A stretch of 64,000 nt of DNA from a virus: the IMG/VR virus record IMGVR_UViG_3300045988_090162; one strand, 5' to 3'. Of the stretch, positions 4,375 through 31,482 are shown in pieces. The notes under the pieces are model-generated. The model was given only the letters and a program-made list of their open reading frames with translations, made no database searches and had not been told where the DNA came from. Position numbers and translations under genes: made by a program. Position 1 is the first letter of the stretch; every line of letters begins with the position of its first letter.

Positions 4375-4467
4375 ATACTTTCTCCTTTCTCTTGGAATAC
4401 TTTATCTTATCCTCTCCCTTTCTCTATATATATTATATAATAATATAGAGCAGACCGCAAGAACTTT

Positions 4468-4758
4468 TTATAGGTCAATTTCCTCAAGAAACAGATGAAT
4501 ACAATACTTGCCGCCAACCTTGGCATAACTAAGACAATCCCAGTGTGCTTTATAGCCAAAAGACGTGATAATGTAATTGATAGCCGCAATCACATAATCC
4601 ATGTCACTCATGCAATTAGCAGGAATGTAGAAAAAATTAGGGCAATCTACATTCTCATGCATACGACAAATAACATCGACAGTCTTCGTGAGAATATTTT
4701 TATCCTTAATGCGGGCAAGAATAACATTAAGACGAAGGTTATCATATTTGTTGGTCAT
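4468..4758 (-). CDS. hypothetical protein
   Basis: 96-aa ORF. Confidence 0.45.
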   Translation of the reverse strand: MTNKYDNLRLNVILARIKDKNILTKTVDVICRMHENVDCPNFFYIPANCMSDMDYVIAAINYIITSFGYKAHWDCLSYAKVGGKYCIHLFLEEIDL

Positions 4759-4844
4759 TTGAATTCCTTTCCTTGCCTTTCTTTAATAATATTATATAAC
4801 ATTATTAAACAGACTGCAAGAAAAATCTTATGCGGCCAATGGCC

Positions 4845-5069
4845 TTATTCTTTCTTCTCTTGGATTACCTCACGCACAAGAAACACAGTTTCCCTTGCCG
4901 CATACAGAATCATACAGATACCAACGATAAAACCAATAACACATAGGACAGTGAAAATAAGCAGACTCATAGGAGAACTACCAATCAATGTCGCTAGTGT
5001 CATTATCATGTCCCCAACAGGAGAATATAAAAGACAAGACAGCGCATACTCCAACGATTGCACAAACAA
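4845..5069 (-). CDS. small membrane protein
   Basis: 74 aa with two hydrophobic helices. Confidence 0.4.
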   Translation of the reverse strand: MFVQSLEYALSCLLYSPVGDMIMTLATLIGSSPMSLLIFTVLCVIGFIVGICMILYAARETVFLVREVIQEKKE

Positions 5070-5311
5070 GACAGACAGCTCCTAACACTTCATCAATCAT
5101 AATCTTCATTATCATATGCATCAATTACATTGCCGAGCCAATCATAGAAAGTTTCGCCGCTACCGCTTTCAATCTTATTAACATAATCAACAATATTATC
5201 TATATCGTCAGTAGCACTAAGGGCATCTAAAATATCATCATAGATATAATCCATATAACCTCCAATAGCAAAAAGGAGAATAGATTTCTCTACTCTCCTT
5301 GTGCGGCCAAT

Positions 5312-6028
5312 CTAGTCTTCAAAATTCATTTCTTTTCGTTCTTGGCGCTCATAGTCTTGGCCGTCCTCGAAGCCTTCATTGTAACCATCTTCACGACCAT
5401 CTGCATAGCCAGTATCGTAACCATCTTGCCAACTGGTGACTTTATCGTTGTGTACATCGGTACAATATGTTTTCAAAACTTTGTTATATGCGCCAGCAGT
5501 CTGAAAATAATGTTTGGCAACACACGCATTAAAACCTGCGGACTCACTCCACACGTCGTTCTCAGCACACTTAGAGCGAGTAACCTTGCCGTCACGCCAC
5601 CACACGATAGTCCAAGGATTATCATACTTGACGCGCTTAATCATATTAACTGAATTTTGATTAAACTTACGGCTAATCTCTTCCTCATGCTTTTGCTTTT
5701 TCTTAGTTAGCTTCTCATAGCCCTCGATAAGTGCAGGATAAAGGAATTCAAGCAAATCATCATCAAGTTCCATATCCATAATATTGCCTGCATAATCAGT
5801 CGCATAATTAAACTTGGCAAGGAACTTGGCATTCAAAGAAGCAAGCTGATGTGCGGCTTTTGCGCACTCAGCTGTCTTAACATCTGAATTAGTCACAATA
5901 TTGTTCTTATAAAATGAACCATCAAAATCACTGCATTTTTCTACGCCTATACCGACACCAAGTGTACCCATACTAGTTCTCTTTACTAAAGTCCTTCTGG
6001 ACTTGCTCAAAATACTTATAAAAGTCAT
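5312..6028 (-). CDS. hypothetical protein
   Basis: 238-aa ORF with acidic DGY-rich C-terminus. Confidence 0.5.
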   Translation of the reverse strand: MTFISILSKSRRTLVKRTSMGTLGVGIGVEKCSDFDGSFYKNNIVTNSDVKTAECAKAAHQLASLNAKFLAKFNYATDYAGNIMDMELDDDLLEFLYPALIEGYEKLTKKKQKHEEEISRKFNQNSVNMIKRVKYDNPWTIVWWRDGKVTRSKCAENDVWSESAGFNACVAKHYFQTAGAYNKVLKTYCTDVHNDKVTSWQDGYDTGYADGREDGYNEGFEDGQDYERQERKEMNFED

Positions 6029-6395
6029 CGTTCAGCTCACACAACATTGCAATACGAATCCACGCATCAAACTTAGTAATTCCCTCTTGACCATGCCCAA
6101 CGAACTCATACCAAGGCACCTCATCACCATATTCACTTTCAAGCATTTCACGAATATCCTCGTCAGCGAACATATTCGCAATCTTCTCACCATCAGGCTC
6201 ATATGTCACAAGGAAGCAATCAGGATGTCCCGCAGATGAAGCGTTGCCAGTCACATCATCAGAATAATACATATCATCGAAGACCTCGCTCCAATCGGTG
6301 TCACCATCATAAGTGCCGTCCTCGAAGTTGGCAACAATAAAATTTTTTGCATCATCCTCAACCATGTTCTTGAAAGAAAGATAAATCCAACCCAT
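5973..6395 (-). CDS. hypothetical acidic protein
   Basis: 140-aa ORF, highly acidic; overlaps the downstream gene, so the true start may be internal. Confidence 0.45.
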   Translation of the reverse strand: MGWIYLSFKNMVEDDAKNFIVANFEDGTYDGDTDWSEVFDDMYYSDDVTGNASSAGHPDCFLVTYEPDGEKIANMFADEDIREMLESEYGDEVPWYEFVGHGQEGITKFDAWIRIAMLCELNDDFYKYFEQVQKDFSKEN

Positions 6396-6429
6396 TCTAA
6401 TTCCTCTCTTGGAGAACTAATATATCAGA

Positions 6430-6630
6430 TTAAAGGCTCTCAATACTGCCGACATAGCCCTCATAGACAAGATGATGCTCACGAAGGTTCTTGGCGGCAA
6501 CTTCAGCCATGATGCGGTCAAGCTGTTCAAGGCTCTTGAACATGCACTCAGTATACTCAATGCCGCAGAAGCGACCATCGCCCTCGTAGAACTTGTTGAA
6601 GATGATGTTAGCCTTCATGTACTTAGCCAT
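6430..6630 (-). CDS. hypothetical protein
   Basis: 66-aa ORF immediately downstream of a cassette promoter. Confidence 0.45.
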   Translation of the reverse strand: MAKYMKANIIFNKFYEGDGRFCGIEYTECMFKSLEQLDRIMAEVAAKNLREHHLVYEGYVGSIESL

Positions 6631-6663
6631 ATTGGAAAACCTTTCTTCCTTGCCATTTCTTTA

Positions 6664-6700
6664 ATTATATTATATAATAATGGAGGACGAACCGCAAGTA
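6664..6700 (-). promoter_or_regulatory. sigma70-like promoter of the cassette family (TTGC/TTGAC – N17 – TATATAAT)
   Basis: rc reads ...CTTGCGG-N17-TATATAAT then CCA..AAGG leader and ATG; same cassette recurs about 20 times. Confidence 0.55.
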
Positions 6701-6721
6701 TTTTTTTACTCTATTGGTCTA

Positions 6722-6934
6722 TTACAACTTCCTACCGCAGATGGGGCAAAAGTTAATATCAATCGAGCTTGCAGCAGATTCACCATATTCATCATCAATG
6801 CAAATGAACTTGCGCTGCGGATTTTTAAAGACATCACAAATGGTAATAGAATAGCCCTCGCCCTCAGAATATTCATCATCAATCATGTTTGCGCCAAATC
6901 GAGCATCATTGCTATACTCACAATACTTGCACAT
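6722..6934 (-). CDS. zinc-ribbon protein (CxxC...CPICGRKL)
   Basis: N-terminal MCKYC and C-terminal CPICGRKL; paralogue of 10541..10861. Confidence 0.5.
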   Translation of the reverse strand: MCKYCEYSNDARFGANMIDDEYSEGEGYSITICDVFKNPQRKFICIDDEYGESAASSIDINFCPICGRKL

Positions 6935-6982
6935 ATAAGAACTTCTTTCTCTTGGTTTATTTAATTATATTATATAACAATT

Positions 6983-7177
6983 TCAAACAGAACGCAAGAA
7001 CTTTTTTGGACTAATGACGCATAATAGGATAAAATAACCGTTGATAAAGTATTTGACCGCATTCTTGCCTGAGTCATATCTAAGAGCGTCATCAATCTTC
7101 ACTTCAAGAGTCTGAGAATAGTTCTCAGAGTCGGAATTTTTAAAAGACTTCCTTTTTACTTCGTTTAGTAAAATCAT
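6983..7177 (-). CDS. hypothetical protein
   Basis: 64-aa ORF. Confidence 0.35.
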   Translation of the reverse strand: MILLNEVKRKSFKNSDSENYSQTLEVKIDDALRYDSGKNAVKYFINGYFILLCVISPKKFLRSV

Positions 7178-7426
7178 AAATTACTTCTTAATAAGACAAA
7201 AGTTCCCAAGTATTGACGAGAAATGCTTCATTCGTATCGACCGCATACAGAAGGACATGACCATCGCCATAAATTTCTTCAATCTGGCAGATGATAAGCT
7301 TGCGAGTATAAGGATTAAGATACTGTACATAATCGTTGCGCTTCATATACTTTCCTTTCCCTCTTGGTATACTTATATTATATACTATTATTTCACCATC
7401 TGCAAGAAAAATTTTAGATATGCGGC

Positions 7427-7654
7427 TTAAAAAGCAGTCATATGATATAGCTGGTCAACTAAAAGATAAAAATAATGTCCAAGTATATCATTATCATACT
7501 CACAACGACTTGGCGGCAAAGTAATACTTGGATATACAACATCATTCGTGTTTACTTTATAAGTATTAAATACAACAACAAGACTGCCTTCCATTGGTTT
7601 TGTAGTCAAAAAAATACTACAATATCCCAATGGTTCTTTGTCATGTTTAGACAT
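7427..7654 (-). CDS. hypothetical protein, paralogue of 7803..8186 (possibly N-terminally longer)
   Basis: C-terminal motif VYP.ITLP..R.E.D.D.LG.YFY.L...LY shared with the neighbouring gene. Confidence 0.45.
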   Translation of the reverse strand: MSKHDKEPLGYCSIFLTTKPMEGSLVVVFNTYKVNTNDVVYPSITLPPSRCEYDNDILGHYFYLLVDQLYHMTAF

Positions 7655-7802
7655 AATTTCAAAAGAGCAGGACGTATCAAAATTATCAGCTTCATCTTTA
7701 TAAAACTTAATAACGCCAACTTCCCAACACGCGCTGTTTGTATTAAAGCAATAGACTTTTAAGGCATTGTAGATTTCTTTAAAAATATTTACACTTTTTC
7801 TC

Positions 7803-8186
7803 CTAATAAAAAACAGCCAAAGTATATAAATTATGTATCAAACGATAAAAATAGCGTCCCAAAACATCGTCAGTGACTTCATATCGATTTAGTGGCAAAG
7901 TAACTTGAGGATACACGTTGCCGGTTCCATAGACACTTTCCTTATATGCCTTAAATGAAACAGTCAAAGAATCAAAAGAAGTTTCTGTATTGATTAGAGT
8001 GATGCTACACCGACCAAAAGATTCTTGGTTATAGCTGGCAAGAATATCAAAAGTACAATACGAAATAAGCCTATTTTTGTAAAACTTTACATGACCAACC
8101 GTCCAACATTGAGTCCTATCAAGACTATGTTTTTTAATAGCATTGTAGATTTTCTCTAGAATATTTAAAGTATTTGAATCATTCAT
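7803..8186 (-). CDS. hypothetical protein (paralogue family)
   Basis: 127 aa; shares a conserved C-terminal block with 7427..7654. Confidence 0.5.
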   Translation of the reverse strand: MNDSNTLNILEKIYNAIKKHSLDRTQCWTVGHVKFYKNRLISYCTFDILASYNQESFGRCSITLINTETSFDSLTVSFKAYKESVYGTGNVYPQVTLPLNRYEVTDDVLGRYFYRLIHNLYTLAVFY

Positions 8187-8193
8187 AGCTCTC

Positions 8194-8592
8194 CTAATAA
8201 CAACTCATTAAAGTATCAACTTCATCTACAAAATCATAAACGTATTGACCAATAGAATCCCAGTCCTTGCCGCCATGGTACGGAATAACGAACTTTGCAG
8301 TTGAATTACCCATATGACGATTATACTTCCAAATTGAAGAATCTAGCTTGTGTTGCGTTTCCAAATTATTGTCAGTAATTACTAAATCATCAACAGATAC
8401 GCAACCTTTAAATGATTCATCATCAAGCCAAACCATATTGAAAAACACTTTGCTTGGATTAAGTTCATTTACAGAAATACATGCGGGTTTCCAATCAAAA
8501 TGACAAAGAGGACGCTCGCGGTATGCTTGCTCAACCTTGGCGGCATATTCAGTCAAGCTCTTAACAATTTCATCAGTTAGATAATAACTCAT
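8194..8592 (-). CDS. hypothetical protein
   Basis: 132-aa ORF. Confidence 0.5.
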   Translation of the reverse strand: MSYYLTDEIVKSLTEYAAKVEQAYRERPLCHFDWKPACISVNELNPSKVFFNMVWLDDESFKGCVSVDDLVITDNNLETQHKLDSSIWKYNRHMGNSTAKFVIPYHGGKDWDSIGQYVYDFVDEVDTLMSCY

Positions 8593-8594
8593 GA

Positions 8595-8996
8595 TTAATC
8601 CTTATCAAAATCATTTGCGGCCAATAGACAGTCAAGAACGTGCGCGGCATCCGCTACTTTCTCTAGAACTCCCACAACAGTCTCAGCATTATATCCTTCA
8701 CTGTCTCGAAAACATAGCACAAAATTGTAAGCAGCAGAATCGCTATCGTCCAAGCTACCACCGTTAGGATAGATGTGAATATTACAATCAGCAGTTTTAT
8801 CAGAAATATCAGAAGCGACTCGAACATAAAGTTTATCCTCTTCCTTCTTCACGATATTCAAGATATGCCAAGAGTACTTGACAACATTATCATACATAAA
8901 ATCGTGGATAAGCTGATTCATAAACTTATTCATCTTACATTCCCAACGTTTGGCAAATGGCGGCATAAACATATGCACACTCCATATAACCTGCAC
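8595..8996 (-). CDS. hypothetical protein
   Basis: 133-aa ORF, tightly packed with its neighbour. Confidence 0.5.
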   Translation of the reverse strand: MQVIWSVHMFMPPFAKRWECKMNKFMNQLIHDFMYDNVVKYSWHILNIVKKEEDKLYVRVASDISDKTADCNIHIYPNGGSLDDSDSAAYNFVLCFRDSEGYNAETVVGVLEKVADAAHVLDCLLAANDFDKD

Positions 8997-9311
8997 TATA
9001 TACTATCAATTCCTCAACATCGTCACTGCCGAGTGCGGCAATAACGAATAGCGGCGCATATTCAAAGCCCTTATAATTAACATAAGCCGTAACAGTCACA
9101 TGCTTATCACAAAAGAATAAGTATAAGTCTGCTCGTCCATACTTGCAATTGCCACATCCTCATGGCACATACGCATCACATGGTTGACGCTGGCAAAAAC
9201 CTGATTGATAGTCTGCTTGAACTTCTTGCTGCTCTGGGTCATGTTTTATCCCTTCCTTGTCTTTCTTTATATATATTATATAATAATATAAGACTGGCCG
9301 CAAGTATAAAA

Positions 9312-9746
9312 TTATCGGTAGAGCATCTTAATTGCCATGTCGATAATGTCATTCATGTAGATGCTACCGACCTCGCATTTATAATCCTCTATATTAAACT
9401 CTAACGAATCGCAACCATCATAGAACAAAAAATGTACCCGACCAATAGCCCAGTCAGGGTCACGCTCAATGTACTCTTCAAAACAACTTATTGCGCAAGA
9501 GCAAAGAAGCTGATTGTCTGCCTTTTGCCGCACATCGAATGATACCACATTATCATGCTCTTTAGGTTTACATGTTTTCCAGTTATACATATCACCATCA
9601 CTGCACTTACCATGAATGGTATCAAACAAAATCTTAGCGCTCTTCATTCTATTTCCTCTCTTGGAAAATAAAAACAGGGGCTTGCGCCCCTGTTTACAAT
9701 TAATATAGAGACAACTTGTTCTCTGGTACGTAAACGGTAGAGCCAT
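9312..9746 (-). CDS. hypothetical protein
   Basis: 144-aa ORF. Confidence 0.5.
   Translation of the reverse strand: MALPFTYQRTSCLYINCKQGRKPLFLFSKRGNRMKSAKILFDTIHGKCSDGDMYNWKTCKPKEHDNVVSFDVRQKADNQLLCSCAISCFEEYIERDPDWAIGRVHFLFYDGCDSLEFNIEDYKCEVGSIYMNDIIDMAIKMLYR
9670..9700. terminator. bidirectional rho-independent terminator
   Basis: AAAAACAGGGGCttgcGCCCCTGTTT, GC stem with A/T runs on both sides. Confidence 0.6.
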
Positions 9747-9939
9747 TCAGATACTTAACGAGGACTGTTCCGTTGCTATTGAAGTGCAAAATCTTAACAA
9801 CACTTACAAGACCAGCAGGACTAGTATAGGTAACATAATCTCCAACAGATAGCTTAAGCATCTTCATTCTCTTCCTCTTCGTCTGTGTCTTCAATCCACT
9901 CATGGTCTTCATTGAGGAACCCGGCTTCTTCCAAGTCAT
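9700..9939 (-). CDS. hypothetical protein
   Basis: 79-aa ORF. Confidence 0.4.
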   Translation of the reverse strand: MTWKKPGSSMKTMSGLKTQTKRKRMKMLKLSVGDYVTYTSPAGLVSVVKILHFNSNGTVLVKYLNGSTVYVPENKLSLY

Positions 9940-10141
9940 ATTTCATATAGAACCAAAGATAATCGTTAATATCAGTCTCAGTGCGGGCTTCGTCCTCTTC
10001 ATAGAAATACAACTCAGCTTCTTCAAGTCGGTTAACGATATAATCGTAAGCCTTTGGATGGTCAATCAACTCTTCCAACCAAGTCTTGCCGCCAGACCAT
10101 GCTTGAAAACGATTAAGTTCACGTTCGACAACGTAACGCAT
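9854..10141 (-). CDS. hypothetical acidic protein
   Basis: 95 aa with an acidic EEEENEDA tail; cassette promoter at 10172-10205. Confidence 0.45.
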   Translation of the reverse strand: MRYVVERELNRFQAWSGGKTWLEELIDHPKAYDYIVNRLEEAELYFYEEDEARTETDINDYLWFYMKYDLEEAGFLNEDHEWIEDTDEEEENEDA

Positions 10142-10204
10142 ATCTTTCTTCTTTCTCTTGCCTTTCTTTAATAATATTATATAATATTAAAGAGTGTAGG
10201 TCAA

Positions 10205-10531
10205 CTAGAAAATAGTAAGGATTTTTGATTCCTTTACCATATCACAGAAAAGCATAACTGCGAAGTTCTGAACAGGACTCTCGCCCATTACGCCTTTCTC
10301 ACCTAGATATGTGCGGCCAATCTTGCTATATGTAACATCCTTCCCGTTTTGATATTCACAATAAATATCAAAGTAGACAGGTACTTGCTTGCGGCCAACT
10401 ACTGTGAACTTGATACCATGATAATAGAACGTGCTGCGCGTCTCGCCGTTATACTCACCAACCAGCCAACCTTCATTATATGCGATAGTTTCCAAAGCTG
10501 ACAGAATGTTAGAGATAAGGTTGCAATTCAT
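10205..10531 (-). CDS. hypothetical protein
   Basis: 108-aa ORF. Confidence 0.5.
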   Translation of the reverse strand: MNCNLISNILSALETIAYNEGWLVGEYNGETRSTFYYHGIKFTVVGRKQVPVYFDIYCEYQNGKDVTYSKIGRTYLGEKGVMGESPVQNFAVMLFCDMVKESKILTIF

Positions 10532-10540
10532 TAAATCTCC

Positions 10541-10861
10541 TTAGAGCTTGCGACCACAGAAGGGACAATACTCAATCTCATGCGACCAACCGAGCTTATC
10601 AACGCCTTTATCGTAATACTCGCCCATAAGATAATAGGCTTTGTCTGTATCCGAATAATGAATATACATACCAACATCAGAATCGGCATTATCATAATCA
10701 GTACAGTCAATGCTCTCGCCCCAGCGGGTATTCATCTTGAAATTACAATACTTGCACATACAATCTCCTTTAAAGATAATAAACATCTTCACGCTTGGCA
10801 GTATGGAATATTCCGTCTTCATCAACGATAACAAGGCTATCGCAGAATAAAAGAACATCAA
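10541..10861 (-). CDS. zinc-ribbon protein (CKYC...CPFCGRKL)
   Basis: Paralogue of 6722..6934 (same terminal CGRKL). Confidence 0.5.
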   Translation of the reverse strand: MMFFYSAIALLSLMKTEYSILPSVKMFIIFKGDCMCKYCNFKMNTRWGESIDCTDYDNADSDVGMYIHYSDTDKAYYLMGEYYDKGVDKLGWSHEIEYCPFCGRKL

Positions 10862-10985
10862 TGACTACGCCATATACATCGCCGTACAAAGCCTTGTAGA
10901 GAACCTTAGAGCCAATCATGTAATTCCCTTTCCTTCTTGGTCTATATATATTATATAATAATATATAGCGAAATGCAAGAACTTT

Positions 10986-11309
10986 TTAATGCGGCATCAG
11001 AAGATGTACAAAAGCGCCATAAGGCGATACAATCCAAGGAATCATAGTTGCAAGTTTTACCACTAAAATGACTGCGGTAAATGCACTGATACAATAGCAG
11101 ATAAAGCCTACCATTTCAAAAGTTTCATATTTATCCCTCATATCGCTGCGCTGATACTTAGTTAGTTTTTCTTGTTCCCAATTAGCATATTCCTTGCTTT
11201 TAGCTATGAAAAATCGAGCCAAGACCAAAAGAGCAATAGTAATGGCAGCAAAAATAATAACTCTACTAACATGCGCCGCAATAGCATATGAAGCGTATGC
11301 GGGAATCAC
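10986..11309 (-). CDS. membrane protein
   Basis: 107 aa with three hydrophobic segments. Confidence 0.45.
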   Translation of the reverse strand: MIPAYASYAIAAHVSRVIIFAAITIALLVLARFFIAKSKEYANWEQEKLTKYQRSDMRDKYETFEMVGFICYCISAFTAVILVVKLATMIPWIVSPYGAFVHLLMPH

Positions 11310-11535
11310 GTCTTTCGTGACAGCGCTTACGGCGATTCCAAGCTGATTTGCGATTTCTTTAGACTCCTTCTTAATCTGCGCTGCCTTAATATAGATTTAC
11401 AACATCTTTTGGACTTTGGGTTGTCCTTTCAAGTCTTCAATCTTACAAGGACGGAAACCGAACTCAGAAGCCATATAAAATCCTTTCTGCTTCATTTCTT
11501 AAATATATTATATCATTTTATATGGCTTACTACAA

Positions 11536-11565
11536 GAAAAAAATAGGGCTATTTCTAGCCCTACC
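11536..11565 (-). terminator. rho-independent terminator
   Basis: minus strand reads GTAGGGCTAGAAATAGCCCTATTTTTTT. Confidence 0.65.
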
Positions 11566-11566
11566 A

Positions 11567-11896
11567 TTAGTACTGAGGAATCCGTTCCTTGAACTTGCGC
11601 TCGCCGCATTTAGTAAATTTGTCGCAATCTAAGTAAGAACATACAAAGTTATCTTCTTCATCGAAGATACCGTTATCACTATGGAATACATATACATCGT
11701 GCGGCTTCTCATACTCTTCCCAAGCATCCATATTGTAAGCAATATCATGTGCGAGGAAAAGCGCAATATCTGCATCACTATCTAGGATAGGGATTACCTT
11801 CATTCCACGATAGGAATCAACGCCATCTTCAAACCAGTCCATCACAACAAAAAACATATTTACCACTCCACTACTAAAACAAAATGACCATTGCAC
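11567..11896 (-). CDS. hypothetical protein
   Basis: 109-aa ORF. Confidence 0.5.
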   Translation of the reverse strand: MQWSFCFSSGVVNMFFVVMDWFEDGVDSYRGMKVIPILDSDADIALFLAHDIAYNMDAWEEYEKPHDVYVFHSDNGIFDEEDNFVCSYLDCDKFTKCGERKFKERIPQY

Positions 11897-12135
11897 GGTG
11901 TTATATAACAGTTATAACCTAAGCTATGATAATACACAACAATACTGCGGCGAAATTCTACATCCTGCGCACGTTCATCGTCACAAGGAAAAAGTTCGAC
12001 CTTGCAACGGAACTTCATGCGCTCTGCCGCGGCAATAATCTCTTCATTGATTTTATCTTCTAGCTCTTGTGGAATATCATACTCATATTTATAGAGAGTA
12101 TCATATACCATTGTGCGAGCATCATTAGCAATCAT
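11860..12135 (-). CDS. hypothetical protein
   Basis: 91-aa ORF. Confidence 0.45.
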   Translation of the reverse strand: MIANDARTMVYDTLYKYEYDIPQELEDKINEEIIAAAERMKFRCKVELFPCDDERAQDVEFRRSIVVYYHSLGYNCYITPCNGHFVLVVEW

Positions 12136-12155
12136 AAAATACCTTTCTTACCACT

Positions 12156-12344
12156 TTAACTATAACGTAACATGCTGTCATATCGTTTAGCACAACACAT
12201 AAAATCTTGCCAAGCGTCATTTGTACGACTTGGATACTTAGGCTCAAACCAAAGACAATTAGGACAAGAAGCACGCAATGGCGCAATACTGCCCGTCTGC
12301 CGCATCCATGCACGGCATACGTCTCCATGAATACATGCGGCCAT
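12156..12344 (-). CDS. small Cys-rich protein
   Basis: ATG directly follows the upstream stop (taATGgcc) with AAGGAG 10 nt upstream; preferred over the overlapping ORF 12125..12328. Confidence 0.45.
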   Translation of the reverse strand: MAACIHGDVCRAWMRQTGSIAPLRASCPNCLWFEPKYPSRTNDAWQDFMCCAKRYDSMLRYS

Positions 12345-12655
12345 TACTCATGCTCCTTACGATAACGCTCGGCATCTGCCGCAGTCGCTAGAAAATATTC
12401 ATGCTCATGGCCGGGCCAATTATATTCAACGAAGATACCCATCGAGCGTAGAATGGACTGAGCACCGCGAAGTTGCGTCTCATAACGTTCACGGTTCTCA
12501 GAGAAAGCCTTTAGTTCACGTTCAGACTTACTCTTTACAGAAGTGCTGATAATACTGCGCTCAATATCTTTTGTCGTGTTAAACCAGCTTAGAACGCTCT
12601 CCTGCTGGTCTTTTGTAAGATAATTATAATGTTCTGGATAATCAAATGTACACAT
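12344..12655 (-). CDS. hypothetical protein
   Basis: 103-aa ORF. Confidence 0.5.
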   Translation of the reverse strand: MCTFDYPEHYNYLTKDQQESVLSWFNTTKDIERSIISTSVKSKSERELKAFSENRERYETQLRGAQSILRSMGIFVEYNWPGHEHEYFLATAADAERYRKEHE

Positions 12656-12657
12656 AT

Positions 12658-12879
12658 CTACTCTTTCATCACTGTAATTGTAGACTCACTACCGAGTCTA
12701 TGTCCTATAATTGCATTATACCCAAGTTTCTGCAAGATTATACATATATCTTCACACTCTTTTTGTGGCATTTCATATACACAATATTCAAAGCCAATAG
12801 GCAAGTCAGATGTTTCTTGCTCTTGGATAATATCTAAGATACATTTGAGGTCATATATAGTATCTTTTTCCATAATCAT
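12658..12879 (-). CDS. hypothetical protein
   Basis: 73-aa ORF. Confidence 0.45.
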   Translation of the reverse strand: MIMEKDTIYDLKCILDIIQEQETSDLPIGFEYCVYEMPQKECEDICIILQKLGYNAIIGHRLGSESTITVMKE

Positions 12880-12903
12880 AGTTATAGACTCGCTATCGAG
12901 CCA

Positions 12904-13212: not shown

Positions 13213-13312
13213 TGATTTCCATATTCGTCATATAGTGTCTTTGTGTCTAACGGAACCTCTTTACCTTCGGCATCTTTGAGTAGTGTGATTTGAATTGCCA
13301 TTTAATCTCCTT

Positions 13313-13792: not shown

Positions 13793-13856
13793 GTGACTCT
13801 CCTTCTTTTGGCTTTCTTTAAATATATTATATCATTTTGAATTGCTGTATGTCAAT

Positions 13857-14459: not shown

Positions 14460-14467
14460 ATATAAGG

Positions 14468-14540: not shown

Positions 14541-14544
14541 ATGC

Positions 14545-15673: not shown

Positions 15674-15829
15674 TCAGATGCTTGCGGCAGATGCCTAGAT
15701 ACCAAAGGTCTGTTGACTCATAATATTTGCAATTGCCGCATATATTAGTAGCTTCAACCATTGTTTCTTCTTTCTCTTGGTTTCTTTAACTATATTATAG
15801 CATATCTTTTAACCAAAAGTCAAGAAAAA

Positions 15830-19162: not shown

Positions 19163-19384
19163 ATAGAATGGATTATTTAGATAAAAGAGCGTTATGAAGA
19201 TAATCGTCAGCTTCTTCAAACGTATCAAAGCTCTTGATAATTTCAAAACGAACAACAGAGCAATCAGTGTTGACACGAATCGAATAGATTCCGCAAGTCT
19301 TTTCACGACAAATGACGAACTGCTTCATAACAAACCTCTTTCTCTCTTGGTCTATATATATTATATAATATTATAAACCAAAAG

Positions 19385-19495
19385 TCAAGAAAAAATATGC
19401 GGAAAAATTGGGGTCAGACTAACAAATGCAGCGTACCGCATTTAAAATATACCATAAAATCTTCATGAAGTAACTGAACCCTCATCACGCATAAT
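19385..19495. repeat. hairpin-repeat unit 4 (covariant stem TTGGGGTCAG / CTGAACCCTCA)
   Basis: ATGCGGAAAAATTGGGGTCAG ... GAAGTAACTGAACCCTCATCACGCAT. Confidence 0.45.
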
Positions 19496-19502: not shown

Positions 19503-19691
19503 TTAGCTAAGAAAGAATGACACCCTGCTTTGCCTTGTTAATCTTGCGGCGAAGTTTGCGCATGATGCCGACATTCTCTGAGTTCTTACCTTTGCGATTG
19601 ATAAGCATCTGATAACGCTGCTCCATCGTCTCGATTGACTGTGCCATACTTCCTTACCTTTCTCTTGGTTTACTACACTAGAAGAAAACAA
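19503..19691 (-). CDS. small basic protein (Arg/Lys-rich)
   Basis: 62 aa, MAQSIETMEQRYQ...RKLRRKINKAKQG; preceded by a ~130-nt leader ending in CCAAGAGAAAGG, with promoter TTGACA-N17-GATATAAT at ~19805-19835. Confidence 0.45.
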   Translation of the reverse strand: MFSSSVVNQEKGKEVWHSQSRRWSSVIRCLSIAKVRTQRMSASCANFAARLTRQSRVSFFLS

Positions 19692-22140: not shown

Positions 22141-22471
22141 ACACCTGACAGGAAAGATTTAAGTCCATAAGATTGGCGTAAATATCACTAAGTCGATTTG
22201 CAATATCCGCACGAGTGTTATTCTTGCACGAACGACCATTAAGATTCTTAATCTCGTTTTCCAAGTCACTCAGCTCAGAGTTGATAGCGTGCTGGACCTC
22301 GTACAAATCATCGCCGATAAGACCTTCAACACCAGTTGCGTACTGTGCTTCATGATAGGAAAGCATCACGGACTCTAATTCATCATAGTTGAAGCCGTTC
22401 TCTTTCAAGCAAACGTCCAAGTCGCGCTTCGAGTCAATATTGTAATATTTATCTTTGACAAACAAATCCAT
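22121..22471 (-). CDS. hypothetical protein
   Basis: 116-aa ORF. Confidence 0.5.
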   Translation of the reverse strand: MDLFVKDKYYNIDSKRDLDVCLKENGFNYDELESVMLSYHEAQYATGVEGLIGDDLYEVQHAINSELSDLENEIKNLNGRSCKNNTRADIANRLSDIYANLMDLNLSCQVYDRDTL

Positions 22472-22538
22472 GATACCTTCCTCTCTCTTTCTTTAACTAT
22501 ATTATATAACTTCTTAAACCTCTTGGCAAGAACTTTTT

Positions 22539-22958: not shown

Positions 22959-23051
22959 TTACTATTCTCCTTTTAATTCTTTTGTTCCTTTAACTTCGTT
23001 AATATTATAACAAATATTTTTCTAGAAGTCAACTATTTTATTGAAAATATT

Positions 23052-23822
23052 TTAGTACCAACCATGAGACTGCCAGTGTGCGGCCGCATTTTCCCAGCTA
23101 CCATATCTATTTGACACATATTGTTCAGCAACCCTGTCTTGATTTTCCTGCGACAAGTCTCCATTCAAATAGGAAATATCAAGCTGATATGCGCCATAGT
23201 AGCGTCCATTGGTGGCACTATAACTGCCGCCACTTTCTTTAGAAACGATGAAGTCACGCGCTGAACCGTTCCAAGAGTAATCAGCATATGAATAACTTGG
23301 AGCGCTATATGAACTAGATTGCTGATTCTGGTAGTTTGCCTGCGCAGCCGCTTTAGCAGCAGCTTCTTGAGCCGCACGTTCTTCTGCTTCTTTCTTCTCT
23401 TGGAGTGCTTTCTGTTTCTTATCTGCACCATACTGTTTCCAGCTATCAAGTCGAGCTTTATACTGCTTTAACTCTGTAATAGTGTCGCAAACAGATTGCT
23501 TCTCCATAATATCTTGAATCTCTAGAATATCATTCTGTTCAAGATAGTCTCCGTAATTTTGAATAATGTATATGGCTTCATCAAACTGTGAGTCTTTCAT
23601 ATTACATTTATCCACTAGCCATGTCTGAGCGTTATCGTACCCATCTTCCTTATATGGAATCATAGCATCAAGTGTAGTTGTGCGGACTACCGCATTTGTA
23701 ATTTCGTCATTAACGATGATTGCATCTGCTTCATTCACACAAAAAGCATTTGTCACGCCAGCGAGTGCCACTACGGATAGGCACATAGCCAATGCTTTCG
23801 TTTTGTTTTTAATGAATTTCAT
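23052..23822 (-). CDS. secreted transglycosylase-like (Rpf/SceD-family) muralytic protein
   Basis: Signal peptide MKFIKNKTKALAMCLSVVALAGVTNA (start at internal Met, RBS AAAGAGGA); C-terminal NGRYYGAYQLD...RYGSWENAAAHW resembles the transglycosylase-like domain. Confidence 0.6.
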   Translation of the reverse strand: MKFIKNKTKALAMCLSVVALAGVTNAFCVNEADAIIVNDEITNAVVRTTTLDAMIPYKEDGYDNAQTWLVDKCNMKDSQFDEAIYIIQNYGDYLEQNDILEIQDIMEKQSVCDTITELKQYKARLDSWKQYGADKKQKALQEKKEAEERAAQEAAAKAAAQANYQNQQSSSYSAPSYSYADYSWNGSARDFIVSKESGGSYSATNGRYYGAYQLDISYLNGDLSQENQDRVAEQYVSNRYGSWENAAAHWQSHGWY

Positions 23823-23918
23823 TCGGATAATTCCTCTTTCTATTCCTATACGACAAGACGATTGCTTAAAAATATATAAAAAATGTGGGCAAAAGATTAT
23901 AATCATTTGCCCAATTAG

Positions 23919-24731
23919 TTAATTTGTAAAACGGATTTGCTTCTTTTTTAAGACTTCGCCAAGAGACAGAAAATCTTCACACTTATTGCAATGATTTGAT
24001 AGACGCTTGCAGCAACGGCGTTCGCAGCCAATCTTGCTTGCGGTGAAACTTGGATGAATTGCGTCACAATGAAAGTCCATATCTATATCTTCGTTGATTT
24101 CGCTCATTTGGCCATGCCAATACTTGTTGATAAACCATGCACGATATAAGACATCAAACTTTGCCCAATCATATGGCAGGCCGCATTCAAATTCAAAAAC
24201 ATCAAAGTATGGATTGATAATATCCATATCTTTTGGCATGAAAATGGGAGCCTTTGGATTAATACCACGGTCAAGTGTCATTGATGGCACCTGATTTAAA
24301 ATTAGACGCATTTGAACGTTATTCTCTTGGCAAATGTCATGTACATTCTTTAGATTATAACATAAATCATCAGCAATATATACATCAGATACACCTAGAT
24401 TGATAAAAGATTCAAGACAAGAATAAGTTGGAACCTTCATATCTTGATTAAAGAAAAACTTATATGAGTTCTCTTTAAGTTCTGCGGCCTTTGTAATATC
24501 TGTTGGCGCTACGCGGATATAAATCTTGTCTGATACTTTGTTAATTGACTTGACTGTAGGCATATGGATACCTTCTGGGAATTCAAGATTGATGCGAGTA
24601 TCCTCATACTCCTGCACAAAGTCAATAAGGTCTTCAATTGAATTGCGAGATTTGTAAAAGAGAATGTTAAACTCTTTGATTTCATCGTTCAATTCGCCAT
24701 TCAATTGAAATGGAATTGCCAATTTAATCAT
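23919..24731 (-). CDS. hypothetical protein (Cys-rich C-terminus)
   Basis: 270-aa ORF. Confidence 0.5.
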   Translation of the reverse strand: MIKLAIPFQLNGELNDEIKEFNILFYKSRNSIEDLIDFVQEYEDTRINLEFPEGIHMPTVKSINKVSDKIYIRVAPTDITKAAELKENSYKFFFNQDMKVPTYSCLESFINLGVSDVYIADDLCYNLKNVHDICQENNVQMRLILNQVPSMTLDRGINPKAPIFMPKDMDIINPYFDVFEFECGLPYDWAKFDVLYRAWFINKYWHGQMSEINEDIDMDFHCDAIHPSFTASKIGCERRCCKRLSNHCNKCEDFLSLGEVLKKKQIRFTN

Positions 24732-24812
24732 ATATCATCCTTTCATAATAACCTATTTTATATTATATAGCAAAAAAGGGCAATTGTCAAGAGACAATCA
24801 CCCTAAAAATCA

Positions 24813-25030: not shown

Positions 25031-25213
25031 TTAGTCCTCCATCAAAATGTCGGCAATCTTATACATATCTGAGGAAACTCGCTCTACGCGCACGCCATAG
25101 ATGTTGTGAATCATATCAATTGCACCATCAAGATAATACTCGGAAATATCATCATGATGCTCAAGATAATAGTTTGCAAGGTGCAGAATAGCAGTGTTAT
25201 AAGAAGCCATCAT
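25031..25213 (-). CDS. hypothetical protein
   Basis: 60-aa ORF with the CCAAGAGAGAGG cassette upstream. Confidence 0.4.
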   Translation of the reverse strand: MMASYNTAILHLANYYLEHHDDISEYYLDGAIDMIHNIYGVRVERVSSDMYKIADILMED

Positions 25214-25274
25214 ATCTTTTCCTCTCTCTTGGCTATACCATAATTATAGCATATGATATAGCCAATCGTCAAGA

Positions 25275-26219
25275 TTAATTTTCAAACCAGTTACGCAACT
25301 CGATTACCGAAGGGCAAGTTCCTCGACCTTGCTCGCGGCACTCTTCCACGAACTCAGGAATTGCATCCATAAGACGAGGTTCAAATGCCAGCTTGGTCTT
25401 GATATTTTTGATAGTCTCAATATCACGTCCAGTCCAAACCTGCTGCAAAACTCCACGAGCCTTTTTCCAGTTCTTGTACCAAGGGGTCTTATATTTCACC
25501 ATGAATCCGTCTGCATCCTCGAAGACAAAGCCCTCGATGTATGCACGTGCGGACCACTTGTCAATGAAAGATTCAAACTCCTGCCAGTTAGCAATGACTT
25601 TGCTAAGAACCTTGCAATAGAATCCAAAATGTCCAGCTACATCAATAAGGGTATAGTACCCCGCATGGCTATAGTTGAAATCATTGTACACCAAGTCCAA
25701 AAGCACGAGGTGAGGATGCGAATACTCAACGATATGCGGGTCATGGATTGGGTCAATACACTCGAAGACAGCAGTGCAGTCATTCTTGCGCAGATATTCT
25801 GCGAATTCCTCCTGCTGTGCAGTGGTCAACGTCTTGTCAAGAACGTCACGGATATATCCTGCGAAATCTCCCTCATTCGTGCTCTTGGATGCGATGAACA
25901 GCTTACCGTCCTCGGTCGGGTCGGCAGAAATCATCGCAAGAAATCCGTTAGACTTGACATATGCGCACACAGGAAACACAAGGTTCTCGCGTAGGCTATC
26001 CATTTCAGTCTCAGGACGCTCTCCGATGTTGAAGAACTTGTTGTACGAACGTGCAACAACCTTATTATCTTTCACGAAAAGTCCGCGCGCCTTTACATTG
26101 ATGGAGTCCCATGCTTGGTTGAAAAAGCACTTGTTGGAGAAATTAAAAGACGAGATTCCATTTGCAAGATGCTTCTCGCGCACAAACGAGCTATTACGCA
26201 GCATATCGATTTCGTTCAT
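25275..26219 (-). CDS. RNA ligase, Rnl1/Trl1-like (KxNG nucleotidyltransferase)
   Basis: Start trimmed to MNEIDML (cassette promoter and CCAAGAGAGAGG leader at 26225-26290); motif I AYVKSNGFLAMIS resembles the Trl1/Rnl1 KANG lysine motif. Confidence 0.55.
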   Translation of the reverse strand: MNEIDMLRNSSFVREKHLANGISSFNFSNKCFFNQAWDSINVKARGLFVKDNKVVARSYNKFFNIGERPETEMDSLRENLVFPVCAYVKSNGFLAMISADPTEDGKLFIASKSTNEGDFAGYIRDVLDKTLTTAQQEEFAEYLRKNDCTAVFECIDPIHDPHIVEYSHPHLVLLDLVYNDFNYSHAGYYTLIDVAGHFGFYCKVLSKVIANWQEFESFIDKWSARAYIEGFVFEDADGFMVKYKTPWYKNWKKARGVLQQVWTGRDIETIKNIKTKLAFEPRLMDAIPEFVEECREQGRGTCPSVIELRNWFEN

Positions 26220-26290
26220 TTGTCTTCCTCTCTCTTGGTTTAATAATATTATATCATATATATAACTGTGCGGCAAATATTTTTTTCTAC

Positions 26291-28380: not shown

Positions 28381-28441
28381 ATGACCGCATCCTTTCTTAA
28401 ACTAAATATATTATAGAATAAAATAATTCAAAAGTCAATAA

Positions 28442-29416: not shown

Positions 29417-29429
29417 TAGAATCCCGCCT

Positions 29430-30023
29430 TTAATCTAATACTAGCTCCGTATTCTTCTTATATCGCTCATAGTCCTCTTGCGACACATCGAATACAGTAA
29501 AGATACCTGTCTTAATATACACGCCACCCATATTACCGTCACGCTTAATGCGACCGAGCATGTCTTTCCATCCGTCCTCAATCACTTCAACTCGTTGTTT
29601 GTCTGGCGATACGACATATGCAGCAGAATATTTGCGACCTTCTTCTTTGCTTACTTCACCGCTAAGATAAAGATACTGTGGAGTTTTACTAATATCTTCC
29701 TCATATGAACGATATATAGAAACCATGTTATCCATGAGGTTTCCTAAAACATAGATTTGAAGGATAGGACGCACATGCTTGTAATCACAAATGACAGTAT
29801 TGAGCCAATCGTTTAAGGACATGTCCTCGCATTTAAACTCTGCGCCAAAATCGTCCATCAATATAACTTCAAAGTCAAGTTCTTCTTTATCATCTTCGAT
29901 GTTAAAGTCAATCGCTTCGGAGATATAATATTCAATTTCATCATATGAAATAAGATTATCAAATTGTCCATATAAAGTATATGGAATATCATTTACAATA
30001 GCTTGAATCTTGCAATAACGCAT
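29430..30023 (-). CDS. hypothetical protein
   Basis: 197-aa ORF. Confidence 0.5.
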   Translation of the reverse strand: MRYCKIQAIVNDIPYTLYGQFDNLISYDEIEYYISEAIDFNIEDDKEELDFEVILMDDFGAEFKCEDMSLNDWLNTVICDYKHVRPILQIYVLGNLMDNMVSIYRSYEEDISKTPQYLYLSGEVSKEEGRKYSAAYVVSPDKQRVEVIEDGWKDMLGRIKRDGNMGGVYIKTGIFTVFDVSQEDYERYKKNTELVLD

Positions 30024-30024
30024 A

Positions 30025-30597
30025 TTAACCTTTCATCCTATAGCGTCGAGAGTATTCCATCATGCAACATGCTGCGCTTTGCGCAACATTCAATGAGCGG
30101 CAAGAGCCATATTGGCGAATATAAATCATTTCATCACACTTGTCAATGATTTCTTTTGGTAGCCCATCACACTCATTCCCATATACAAACGCAGACTTCA
30201 TTGGAATGTCAACATCATAAATATTCTGCGGATTATACTCTGGAATATTATCTACAGCAAAAATAGTATATCCAAGAGGATGAAGAATCCCAAGAACTTC
30301 ATCGAAATCATCAGCATGATATACAGTTTCATATCTATGAGTGCTAATTGAGCCACGTCTATCCCACTTCTTGCGGCCAACGATATAGACTTCTTTCCCA
30401 AGAAACGCATTATGCGCACGGATGCCGCTAGCAATATTGATATTGTACCCTACATTCATAAAAATAGAAACCATTGGGAGCCTATTCTTTTGTAGGTCAG
30501 CTTTAATCTCTTCATCAGTCCACTTTTTATACGCATCAATGACATTTCGCTTTGCCGTCTCACAGAACTCTGTGCTGTAGCCATACTGAGTAATCAT
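30025..30597 (-). CDS. SPOUT (SpoU/TrmH-family) RNA 2'-O-methyltransferase
   Basis: C-terminal VYGNECDGL ... IRQYGSCRSLNVAQSAACCMME matches the SpoU motifs (GNE.GL, SLNV...A). Confidence 0.7.
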   Translation of the reverse strand: MITQYGYSTEFCETAKRNVIDAYKKWTDEEIKADLQKNRLPMVSIFMNVGYNINIASGIRAHNAFLGKEVYIVGRKKWDRRGSISTHRYETVYHADDFDEVLGILHPLGYTIFAVDNIPEYNPQNIYDVDIPMKSAFVYGNECDGLPKEIIDKCDEMIYIRQYGSCRSLNVAQSAACCMMEYSRRYRMKG

Positions 30598-30605
30598 AAC
30601 GTCCT

Positions 30606-30845
30606 TTACATAGTAATAAAGATAGTAAACATTAAATAACCATAATTTTTATCAGATTCAATATCAAAGTTAATTACATCTGCCTTTAAAATTTCCTCAT
30701 GCTTTTCAGCCAGCCATTCTTTTACTGGAACTGATTCAGTTTGCATATCAGGAATATCATACAGCGTAAATTGGACATATGTATTTTCTTTTAATTCATC
30801 AGTCATAGCTGCCAATAAACAATAAACATTCATATTACCACTCAA
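30606..30845 (-). CDS. hypothetical protein
   Basis: 79-aa ORF. Confidence 0.4.
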   Translation of the reverse strand: MSGNMNVYCLLAAMTDELKENTYVQFTLYDIPDMQTESVPVKEWLAEKHEEILKADVINFDIESDKNYGYLMFTIFITM

Positions 30846-31050
30846 TCAGTGAAAGCTGGTCAGTAAGACGCTGAGAGATTTCATCATCTTCAATATAGAA
30901 AATATCTTCCTTATCATTTACAAGATAATTAGAGATAATCTGCCCAAAACGCTGGTCAGGGTACTGCTCCCAAAGGTCTTGAAACTTTACAAGAATATCA
31001 TAGATTCTATTTACATCACGCATAATTGTTCCTTTCAAATATAAAGTCAA
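30835..31050 (-). CDS. hypothetical protein
   Basis: 71-aa ORF. Confidence 0.4.
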   Translation of the reverse strand: MTLYLKGTIMRDVNRIYDILVKFQDLWEQYPDQRFGQIISNYLVNDKEDIFYIEDDEISQRLTDQLSLIEW

Positions 31051-31253
31051 AAGTCAATTAAAACATTTCAAGAAATGCCTTATAGATTTCAAAACGAAAC
31101 TTTTCAAAACGTGCGGCAAATGCAATATACGAATAGCCGCACATAAAAAGTACATATAGTACAAATAGACAATCTGCCATTACTACTCCCTAGAATTAAA
31201 CATGAGACATGCTACAGTGTAGCCAAAAAAGAAACCAATAGCAAAACAAATCA

Positions 31254-31442
31254 TTACTTAATCTTGACCTTCCAAATATCATCGTATGTGTATGGAACGT
31301 TGTCAAGATTTTTCTGCTGCGGACTTGCTTTAGCGCGAATCTTTCTAGTCTCTAAAGCTATATGCTCCATATAACATTTTCCAGCAATTGCCGCAATCAC
31401 AAGAACAGTGATGCAGATAATTGTAATAGCATCAATTCCCAT
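31254..31442 (-). CDS. small membrane protein
   Basis: 62 aa with an N-terminal TM helix. Confidence 0.4.
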   Translation of the reverse strand: MGIDAITIICITVLVIAAIAGKCYMEHIALETRKIRAKASPQQKNLDNVPYTYDDIWKVKIK

Positions 31443-31482
31443 TATTCTTCCTTCTCTTGGATTTTATTTAAGTCTATTATAT

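Follow-up and report, generated by a model that had tools for sequence, protein, structure and literature searches.

A seven-base word at phage gene starts is enriched and conserved on both DNA strands across 64 kb of a metagenomic phage

Introduction

What is a short motif that recurs just ahead of phage genes: an element of their leader RNAs, or a signal in the DNA itself? The question arises from a 64-kb stretch of DNA (hereafter the window) of IMG/VR virus record IMGVR_UViG_3300045988_090162, which represents bases 7257-71256 of a 137,796-bp scaffold from an ENA metagenome assembly; the sample was presumably human gut. Between positions 4380 and 31480, promoter sequences recur on the leftward strand together with a motif, built around the word CCAAGAG, that stands close to the start codon. 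The original prediction took promoter and motif to be one reiterated cassette and proposed that the motif might be a conserved element of the transcription start or the leader, for instance a processing site, a translational enhancer or the target of a riboregulator. Here, we analyzed the 107 genes that our own heuristic calls place in the window. Gene searches covered 81 kb of the 137.8-kb contig. A near-identity DNA search of 50,697 deposited phages found no nucleotide-level relative of the window.

Results

The motif proved to be real. We counted 38 copies of CCAAGAGA in the window, compared with 1.96 +/- 1.43 in dinucleotide shuffles, and the exact word CCAAGAG fell within the 32 nt before the start codon in 15 out of 107 genes, compared with 0.12 by shuffling. 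The conserved unit is nevertheless not CCAAGAGA(A)AGG, as first described, but the 7-mer CCAAGAG, after which the bases vary (AAAGGAG, AGAGG, GGAAAGG, AAAGAAG and others).

CCAAGAG is enriched with base specificity, conserved and balanced in orientation, and its positions turn over while its density stays constant. The window holds 66 copies (29 plus-strand, 37 minus-strand); 18 are non-coding and 48 lie inside genes, the latter comprising 24 sense and 24 antisense copies in all reading frames. A null model that kept the proteins and the codon usage predicted 3.8 sense and 5.6 antisense copies, and a model that kept the proteins and every dinucleotide predicted 3.8 +/- 1.8 (maximum 8) and 8.3 +/- 2.4 (maximum 16), respectively. 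The antisense excess is the first result that tells against a transcription-start or leader RNA element. CCAAGAG was the top 7-mer outlier, and single-base variants defined its specificity as CCA[A>T,C][G>A,T]AG. Codon choice followed the same preference: Gln-Glu encoded as CAA-GAG was preceded by C in 15 out of 24 cases, compared with 4 out of 35 for the other Gln-Glu codon pairs, and Leu-Gly encoded as CTT-GG was preceded by CT in 18 out of 42 cases, compared with 0 out of 46. Genes to the left of about 33.4 kb point leftward and those to the right of about 33.8 kb point rightward, with the GC skew switching at the same point, and the two strands shared the intragenic copies evenly in both the leftward (10:10) and the rightward (14:14) block. 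CC preceded AAGAG in 15 out of 32 cases in leaders, 24 out of 113 in genes in sense and 24 out of 63 in genes in antisense, where chance would give 3-4%. Because these rates are similar in leaders and genes, the same pressure appears to act everywhere.

We measured conservation among at least eight relatives against base-matched positions, using 5000 matched samples. Third codon positions within CCAAGAG were 0.944 identical (control, 0.839) and non-coding positions 0.993 identical (control, 0.936); in both cases, 0 out of 5000 samples reached the observed value. In gyrA, the positions of the word differed between divergent alleles and its density was kept. In line with the conserved element originally proposed, orthologous leaders (seven genes, 17-32 loci each, in unbiased sets) retained the 7-mer while their flanks gained substitutions and indels. 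The rare losses in leaders were TCAAGAG, CTAAGAG and similar forms, mostly C-to-T changes at the CC.

A second word, GCSGCA, behaved similarly. GCCGCA occurred 130 times, where base composition would give 9.5 copies and a second-order Markov model about 19. Inside genes, GCSGCA/TGCSGC reached 94 sense and 91 antisense copies, compared with about 33 each in protein- and dinucleotide-preserving shuffles; the GCWGCA forms (GCAGCA and GCTGCA) were depleted, whereas the S variants were enriched. Among 183 GCSGC sites, 165 were preceded by T and/or followed by A, and the full palindrome TGCSGCA was present at 49. The second word lay on both strands (108:106) and in all frames, independently of CCAAGAG in location, and its third codon positions were 0.866 identical, compared with 0.810 in the control (P = 0.0004). 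A candidate third word, TTGACC, disappeared under the dinucleotide-preserving null (30 observed, 23.8 expected).

Neither word showed a partner motif within 45 nt, and their flanks carried no information. We found no excess of local inverted or direct word pairs that could form hairpins or paired operators, and the spacing of the words was near random (coefficient of variation 0.85-0.94). We rejected three further accounts: that the word is part of a longer repeat or mobile element, given the uninformative flanks; that it is an activator box with a -10-like partner at a fixed distance, as no such partner was present; and that the words mark mosaic recombination junctions, as BLAST breakpoints between relatives were not enriched near them. 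A literature search on the motif returned nothing relevant.

IMG/VR contains dozens of relatives of 100-147 kb, which are mosaic (GyrA 51% identical alongside PhoH 96-99% identical) and not mutually independent. Both words were enriched in nearly all of them, including distant ones (PhoH about 55% identical), as well as in a 130-kb contig from a metagenome-assembled genome (MAG). They also continue in the contig DNA outside the window, including lysis and tail genes. In distant relatives the cassette is tighter, with the form TATAAT-N8-9-CCAAGAG-AGAGAAAGGA-ATG. The words were not enriched in a few lineages (L013, L024, L026 and L027), in which other words occurred: CCGCAA/CCCGCA, CCAGAAG and AGACGAG were over-represented in L013, and CGGCCG(C), GCGCGC and CCGCGG in the L024 group. 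L015, a further lineage lacking CCAAGAG/GCCGCA, over-represented TCCCGCA. The MAG contig (L181; CALBYK010000319.1, 130,063 bp), whose SpoU gene is 55% identical to that of the window, is binned as 'uncultured Prevotella', probably wrongly, because its promoters and ribosome-binding sites (RBSs) are of Firmicutes type. In a search for an unrelated phage with the same words, a 192-kb contig (L140) was the sole candidate; it has FolD and NT5C genes in common with this family and is not clearly independent.

The leader word keeps its place relative to the start codon rather than the promoter. Between 4380 and 31480 its 5' C stands 17-22 nt ahead of the start codon, and elsewhere in the window up to 26 nt ahead, with or without a promoter, whereas its distance to the -10 hexamer varies from 9 to 36 nt; copies also occur at promoterless RBSs. 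In a comparison of the leader of gene 19507-19647 (19600-19700, minus strand) with relatives L041 and L046, some relatives carry a full TTGACA-18-TATAAT promoter in place of the unrelated upstream sequence, and homology resumes precisely at aaaCCAAGAG. All 16 leader-type non-coding copies, that is, those adjoining a start codon or a promoter, are in sense orientation. The element was also said to precede plus-strand genes, and the word indeed occurs at 36759-36765 and 48392-48398. Two plus-strand copies of CCAAGAGA (394 and 528) lie in an apparently gene-poor part of the leftward block (330-540), each downstream of a repeated TCAATCATAAAAT.

The word could instead be an RNA element specific to leaders, with an unrelated excess inside genes: it might enhance translation, extend the Shine-Dalgarno (SD) sequence, stabilise the 5' end or be bound by a protein or a small RNA. 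Such an element would account for the fixed distance to the start codon, for the uniform orientation of the leader-type copies, and for the conservation of non-coding copies and orthologous leaders. It also has a precedent in the start-associated sequences (SAS) of cluster K mycobacteriophages (PMC3203893). We nonetheless regard it as decidedly unlikely. Inside genes, the 7-mer is as enriched in antisense as in sense and its synonymous sites are conserved, CC precedes AAGAG about as often there as in leaders, and CTCTTGG copies do not lie near CCAAGAG copies, which makes RNA-RNA pairing unlikely. With an assumed Firmicutes anti-SD tail (GAUCACCUCCUUUCU), which may not be that of the host, the AGAAAG(G) duplex takes in no more of the word than its final AG, and CCAAG stays unpaired. 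SD pairing with the word was at least as strong as without it (-9.2 and -7.6 kcal/mol, respectively, for the same assumed tail). With that assumed tail, an extended SD sequence is not supported, and the suggestion that the element is more than an SD sequence stands. The leaders themselves are very short (about 20-40 nt) and purine-rich. Eight of them were no more stably folded than shuffled sequences (z from -1.5 to +0.8), and the leaders had no match in Rfam, either at gathering scores or with the limit relaxed to E <= 1. With no structure and no Rfam family, a structured cis-regulatory leader RNA (riboswitch, protein-binding leader or processing hairpin) was rejected. Together with the synonymous-site conservation and the link to the start codon, these results do not sustain the leader RNA element of the original prediction.

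The promoters form a separate array. They take the form TTGAC(A/T) or TTGC(R), a spacer of 16-18 nt (mainly 17), and TATAAT with an extended TATTATATAATATA context. A search for TTGNNN-N16-18-TAWAAT returned 62 sites in the window. Among these, 47 had TATAAT and A/T-rich upstream DNA, with spacers of 17 nt (n=29), 18 nt (n=11) or 16 nt (n=7) and the consensus aaaa.ttTtcTTGac-(17)-ataaTaTtaTATAATAta..TAaa, also written aaaa.ttTtcTTGac-17-TaTtaTATAATAta. Below 11.5 kb, one promoter cassette of about 60 bp recurs ten times in near-identical form, with the consensus taAAAaa.TtCTTGCgg ... tAtAtTATTATATAATATAAtTAAAgAAAGg. An independent consensus scan of 4380-24379 gave 115 promoter-like matches, compared with 64.7 +/- 7.4 in shuffles, which bears out the reiterated promoter family as described; the best matches, those scoring 12/12 and 11/12, lay nearly all on the minus strand, which is the coding strand. 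Window-wide, a promoter lies within 110 nt of the start in 31 out of 106 genes, and promoters also precede tRNA genes. With TTGACA-like -35 hexamers, 16-18-nt spacers and TATAAT, above chance and upstream of genes, the array is best read as predicted ordinary host promoters of the sigma-A/sigma-70 type.

The cassette was thought to precede nearly every minus-strand gene start, which overstates its reach. In 4380-31480, a promoter match lies within 110 nt of the start in 18 of the 62 minus-strand genes; the exact 7-mer occurs in the last 32 nt before the start in 10, and a form with at most one mismatch in 16. Every one of the 17 positions listed for the cassette does carry a promoter, the motif or both, but several of the motifs are variants only and some copies lack a promoter. 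At 6406, 9658 and 19662, the word is present without a promoter, and the copy near 4850 (4857-4863) lies within the 3' end of an open reading frame (ORF), upstream of the next promoter. Cassettes likewise occur without the word: those at 4819, 6697, 9303 and 10204 hold only CAAG-type variants, and about two thirds of the promoters have no word.

Where promoter and word do coincide, their arrangement could suggest an operator. The word begins 9-15 nt past TATAAT in eight promoters, and in the four with a gap of 9-10 nt a normal start site would place it at the extreme 5' end of the RNA, a placement that would also tell against a leader RNA element. The word might be an operator or 'stoperator' at which a phage or host transcription regulator blocks or modulates polymerase just past the start site, in the manner of SPBRE/MrpR or L5 gp71. 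Such a role would suit a DNA-level word present in both orientations. In several promoters, mainly of L050, L052 and L181, an inverted copy overlaps the -35 end (TTGA-CTCTTGG) and a direct copy follows the -10, and the presence of one is associated with that of the other (odds ratio about 5, in data that are non-independent). Phage SPbeta provides a precedent, a 15-bp element in about ten promoters bound by MrpR (PMC10516654). Even so, an operator seems unlikely to us, given a word of only 7 bp without flanking information, at about one per kb inside genes in balanced orientation, which follows the start codon rather than the promoter, stands at promoterless RBSs and occurs in exact copies that are unpaired, while most promoters do without it. 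We saw no MrpR/YopR-like gene in the 81 kb of contig.

A third alternative needs no function at all. Directional mutation and repair, by a cytosine methyltransferase together with very-short-patch-like repair as proposed for HIP1, could generate the words as by-products, the leader copies being passive. GCSGC is a palindrome within GCNGC, and methyltransferases of the SPbeta group have been reported to methylate GGCC and GCNGC. The depletion of GCAGCA/GCTGCA alongside enriched S variants, the C-to-T bias of the leader-word losses, the 1.9-fold excess of GCWGC in SPbeta and the other GC-rich words of other clades all point the same way. CCAAGAG, however, is not palindromic, and its T variants TCAAGAG and CTAAGAG are not depleted; the 81 kb of contig contained no methyltransferase or Vsr-type gene. 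The enrichment is 5-6 fold, and 13-fold over base composition for GCCGCA, a larger effect than that of very-short-patch repair in E. coli. A methylation- or repair-driven origin therefore fits GCSGC better than CCAAGAG, and as an explanation of the words it strikes us as unlikely. In SPbeta itself (L053-L055), the top 5-mer is the palindrome GCWGC (226 observed, 119 expected), the GCNGC subset complementary to the GCSGC of the window phage. We discarded SPbeta as a model for the words, as it has no comparable ones (CCAAGAG, 9 observed and 14 expected).

In gene order, the replication module of the window (YorF, Sak4-like AAA_24, YorH, DnaB-like helicase, primase (51861-52931), RecJ-like exonuclease and Pol III alpha-like polymerase) follows yorF-yorL of SPbeta. 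Its Pol III alpha-like DNA polymerase shares 38% identity with YorL, and the SPbeta group supplied the best cultured hits for this protein. The canonical TTGACA/TATAAT promoters, together with strong RBSs of the AGGAG type, suggest a Firmicutes host. Searches of a genome collection for the host, via prophages and pattern scans, revealed no prophage and a single relative, in a dubious MAG bin.

The leftward block contains many small ORFs without a Pfam match, about 12 tRNA genes, and a set of RNA-repair and nucleotide-metabolism genes. The RNA-repair and modification genes of the window encode two RNA ligases (Rnl1-type, PF09414), two AAA_33/PNK-like kinases, a metallophosphoesterase and a SpoU methylase. 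PhoH, dCMP deaminase, ThyX and guanylate kinase are also encoded in the window, with FolD and dCTP deaminase/dUTPase directly to its right. The gene for NrdD (anaerobic ribonucleotide reductase; 60889-63836, plus strand) is split into two ORFs (60889-62103 and 62775-63836), between which lies an I-HmuI-like HNH endonuclease gene (62198-62689). The interruption probably reflects an intron or some other kind of intervening sequence; a group I intron was not among the Rfam calls. A sub-threshold Rfam match to YrlA (Y RNA-like) at 19011-19139 on the minus strand (41.4 bits, E = 5e-6, gathering score 69) overlaps two tRNA-like elements, and the same phage encodes a TROVE/Ro60-like protein (36779-38209, plus strand); the two may be a phage Ro-Y RNA pair. 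Within the tRNA cluster, ARAGORN called a tRNA-like gene with a four-base anticodon (gacg) at 14626-14698 on the minus strand, which Rfam scored as a weak tRNA (37.6 bits). Coordinates are collected in Table 1.

Table 1. Positions of cassettes, words, promoters and selected genes in the window.
Feature	Position	Strand	Details
Cassette	4372..4460	-	TTGCGG-17-TATAAT (4432-4460); CCAAGAG 4389-4395; ATG 4374
Cassette without exact word	4756..4819	-	TTGCAG-17-TATAAT; leader AAAGAAAGGCAAGGAAAGG; copy 4790-4819 with variant GGCAAGG; ATG 4758
Cassette without exact word	6628..6697	-	TTGCGG-17-TATAAT; leader GGCAAGGAAGAAAGG; copy 6669-6697 with variant GGCAAGG; ATG 6630
Cassette	6932..6997	-	TTGCGT-17-TATAAT; word 6949-6955, 13 nt past -10; ATG 6934
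Cassette	7344..7405	-	TTGCAG-17-TATAAT; word 7361-7367, 9 nt past -10; ATG 7346
Cassette without exact word	9240..9303	-	TTGCGG-17-TATAAT; leader GACAAGGAAGGG; copy 9275-9303 with variant GACAAGG; ATG 9242
Cassette, one-mismatch word	10139..10204	-	TTGACC-17-TATAAT; leader GGCAAGAGAAAGAAG; copy 10176-10204 with variant GGCAAGAG; ATG 10141
Cassette, one-mismatch word	10917..10978	-	TTGCAT-17-TATAAT; leader CCAAGAAGGAAAGGG; copy 10950-10978 with variant CCAAGAAG; ATG 10919
Cassette	15759..15823	-	TTGACT-18-TATAAT; word 15774-15780; ATG 15761; variant CTTTTGG overlaps -35 end
Cassette	19326..19388	-	TTGACT-17-TATAAT; word 19344-19350, 9 nt past -10; ATG 19328; CTTTTGG overlaps -35
Cassette	22469..22529	-	TTGCCA-17-TATAAT; word 22520-22526 overlaps -35; copy 22501-22529 with variant leader AGAGAGAGG, without CC; ATG 22471
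Cassette	25208..25272	-	TTGACG-18-TATAAT; word 25226-25232; ATG 25213/25210; inverted repeat TTGGCTATA...TATAGCCAA around -10
Cassette	26217..26276	-	TTGCCG(CA)-17-TATAAT; -35 overlaps second word TGCCGCA (26266-26272); CCAAGAG 26232-26238; ATG 26219 (Rnl1-type RNA ligase)
Cassette	31440..31504	-	TTGACT-17-TATAAT; word 31454-31460; ATG 31442
Cassette	36712..36781	+	TTGACA-18-TATAAT; word 36759-36765; ATG 36779 (TROVE/Ro-like gene)
Promoter with variant leader word	13826..13855	-	TTGACA-18-TATAAT; CCAAAAG
Promoters without word	11507-11535, 17290-17319, 23004-23032, 24762-24790, 28410-28438, 33435-33464		
Promoters before tRNA genes	14931-14959, 15165-15193, 20320-20348		
Word at RBS	1079..1085	-	Gene 701-1060; no promoter; another copy 1508-1514 ahead of ATG 1494
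Word at internal RBS, no promoter	6406..6412	-	Gene 5973-6395
Word directly past terminator hairpin (9672-9695), no promoter	9658..9664	-	RBS of gene 9312-9647
Word at RBS, no promoter	19662..19668	-	Gene 19507-19647; some relatives have a promoter abutting the word
Word before Sak4-like AAA_24 gene, no promoter	48392..48398	+	Gene 48418-49434
Word before TTG start of NrdD N-terminal part	60866..60872	+	NrdD part 60889-62103; word within a called 43-codon ORF
Intragenic words	54233-54239 (CTCTTGG), 54270-54276 (CCAAGAG)	both	Within RecJ-like gene
GCSGCA word, example	4826-4833		TGGCCGCA
RNA-repair/modification and nucleotide genes	13313-13792, 16726-17262, 25275-26219, 30025-30597, 32505-32996, 33870-34802		

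Discussion

Taking these results together, we consider it somewhat probable that two things are superimposed at these gene starts: an array of host-type promoters, and CCAAGAG as a genome-wide word of double-stranded DNA, of which the leader motif is the subset embedded in RBSs. The promoters would drive many short transcription units, including tRNA genes, through short unstructured leaders in which a AGAAAGGAG-type tract would be the SD site. CCAAGAG would be kept at high density whatever the strand, the reading frame or the coding status of the DNA, in early, replication and lysis/tail genes alike. The purine tract of an SD site already supplies AAGAG and leaves only CC to be added, so that leader copies would be cheap to acquire; for the same reason, the leader word would appear in sense only and anchored to the start codon. 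Word variants overlap -35 hexamers in a similar way (TTGA-CTNTTGG, TTG-CCAAGAG and TTGCCGCA). Its last two bases would double as the beginning of the SD duplex, and any effect on translation would be incidental.

On this dual reading of promoter array and DNA word, a sequence-specific protein would read the word on DNA, and the benefit would come from the density of sites rather than their position. A density-dependent DNA signal fits selection on density instead of position, balanced orientation, bare recognition of 6-7 bp and the variation of the words from clade to clade. Candidates include a Chi-like protection or recombination signal, a site for the replisome or primase, and a modification site; a density of about one per kb per strand would suit replisome or primase sites. 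More tentatively, and with more doubt than conviction, we suggest that a clade of SPbeta-like gut phages of about 140 kb keeps both the asymmetric CCAAGAG (about one per kb) and the quasi-palindrome TGCSGCA (about three per kb) by selection on density, and that a phage or host protein reads them as a genome-wide identity or processing signal, possibly for self-marking, nuclease protection or replisome priming.

Several points weigh against the dual reading. The leader-type copies, all 16 in sense, are slightly more conserved than the intragenic ones, and the word may have an added, leader-specific role. Some promoters, mostly in distant relatives, carry an inverted copy at the -35 and a direct copy past the -10, as an operator would. 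A purely mutational or repair-driven origin would also give enrichment and apparent conservation. No reader protein was identified, the 81 kb of contig revealing no DNA methyltransferase or obvious regulator, and the host was not found.

Known systems resemble parts of this picture. The predicted promoters are like the early sigma-A/sigma-70 promoters of large Firmicutes phages (the SPbeta group, SPO1 and T5-type phages) in their near-consensus hexamers, 17-nt spacing and A/T-rich upstream tract, in their many copies before short early genes and in conservation beyond the hexamers; they differ in that one sub-family has TTGCRG as its -35.

For the motif as first noticed, the nearest match is the SAS of cluster K mycobacteriophages, a repeated asymmetric motif upstream of starts that includes or abuts the SD core and has conserved bases unable to pair with 16S rRNA. 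Our 15 genes, against 0.12 expected, show the same overlap with the RBS upstream of the start. The SAS spans 13 bp, lies 3-7 bp from the start in essentially one orientation and is confined to gene starts; it is asymmetric, precedes many non-structural genes, is conserved across subclusters and has no known function (PMC3203893). By contrast, the word described here has 7 bp, and about three quarters of its copies (48/66) are intragenic, half of them antisense.

Phages that accumulate Chi, such as LLS and P1, likewise over-represent a short asymmetric word beyond codon usage, with individual sites that come and go (PMC12315714). In the lambdoid phage LLS, Chi is the most frequent octamer containing G/C, many-fold over expectation beyond codon usage, and its sites are clustered and oriented in 20 out of 23 cases (PMC12315714). 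CCAAGAG is instead balanced in orientation and near random in spacing, two unrelated words are enriched, and the window phage has its own Sak4/RecJ-type recombination genes. The Chi sequence of B. subtilis was not enriched in SPbeta.

Repeated motifs at many promoters or gene starts are also a feature of SPBRE and of the stoperators of phage L5, the latter asymmetric and dispersed. The L5 stoperators, about 30 in all, lie mostly between genes and are oriented with transcription. They measure 13 bp and SPBRE 15 bp, whereas the word here measures 7 bp and occurs 66 times in 64 kb, mostly inside genes and without orientation bias. SPBRE is an operator in about ten promoter regions of SPbeta, bound by the master repressor MrpR (PMC10516654).

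A further parallel lies outside phages, in HIP1 of cyanobacteria, a short G+C-rich palindrome without a known function. HIP1 is present in huge excess in all frames, both within and outside coding DNA, and its sites turn over; TGCSGCA, too, is (quasi-)palindromic. The words described here differ in marking a phage clade rather than a bacterial phylum, CCAAGAG is not palindromic, and we found no cognate methyltransferase in the 81 kb of contig.

The promoter array is routine; it helps in annotating transcription units and offers a source of strong Firmicutes promoters with short leaders. What began as an apparent leader or RBS motif has emerged as a DNA word that is indifferent to strand and that purifying selection maintains within genes, accompanied by a second word in the same genome, and both persist across a clade of uncultured gut phages. 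To our knowledge, positively selected dispersed words have rarely been documented in phages beyond the Chi-rich lambdoid phages, and otherwise in the HIP1 of cyanobacteria. If the two-word suggestion is true, the 'leader element' would be the visible tip of a two-word system and a phage genomic signal of an undescribed kind. The identity of the reader could reveal a new phage-host interaction in nuclease evasion, self-marking or replisome signalling, and the words could serve as a signature for assigning metagenomic phages to hosts and clades.

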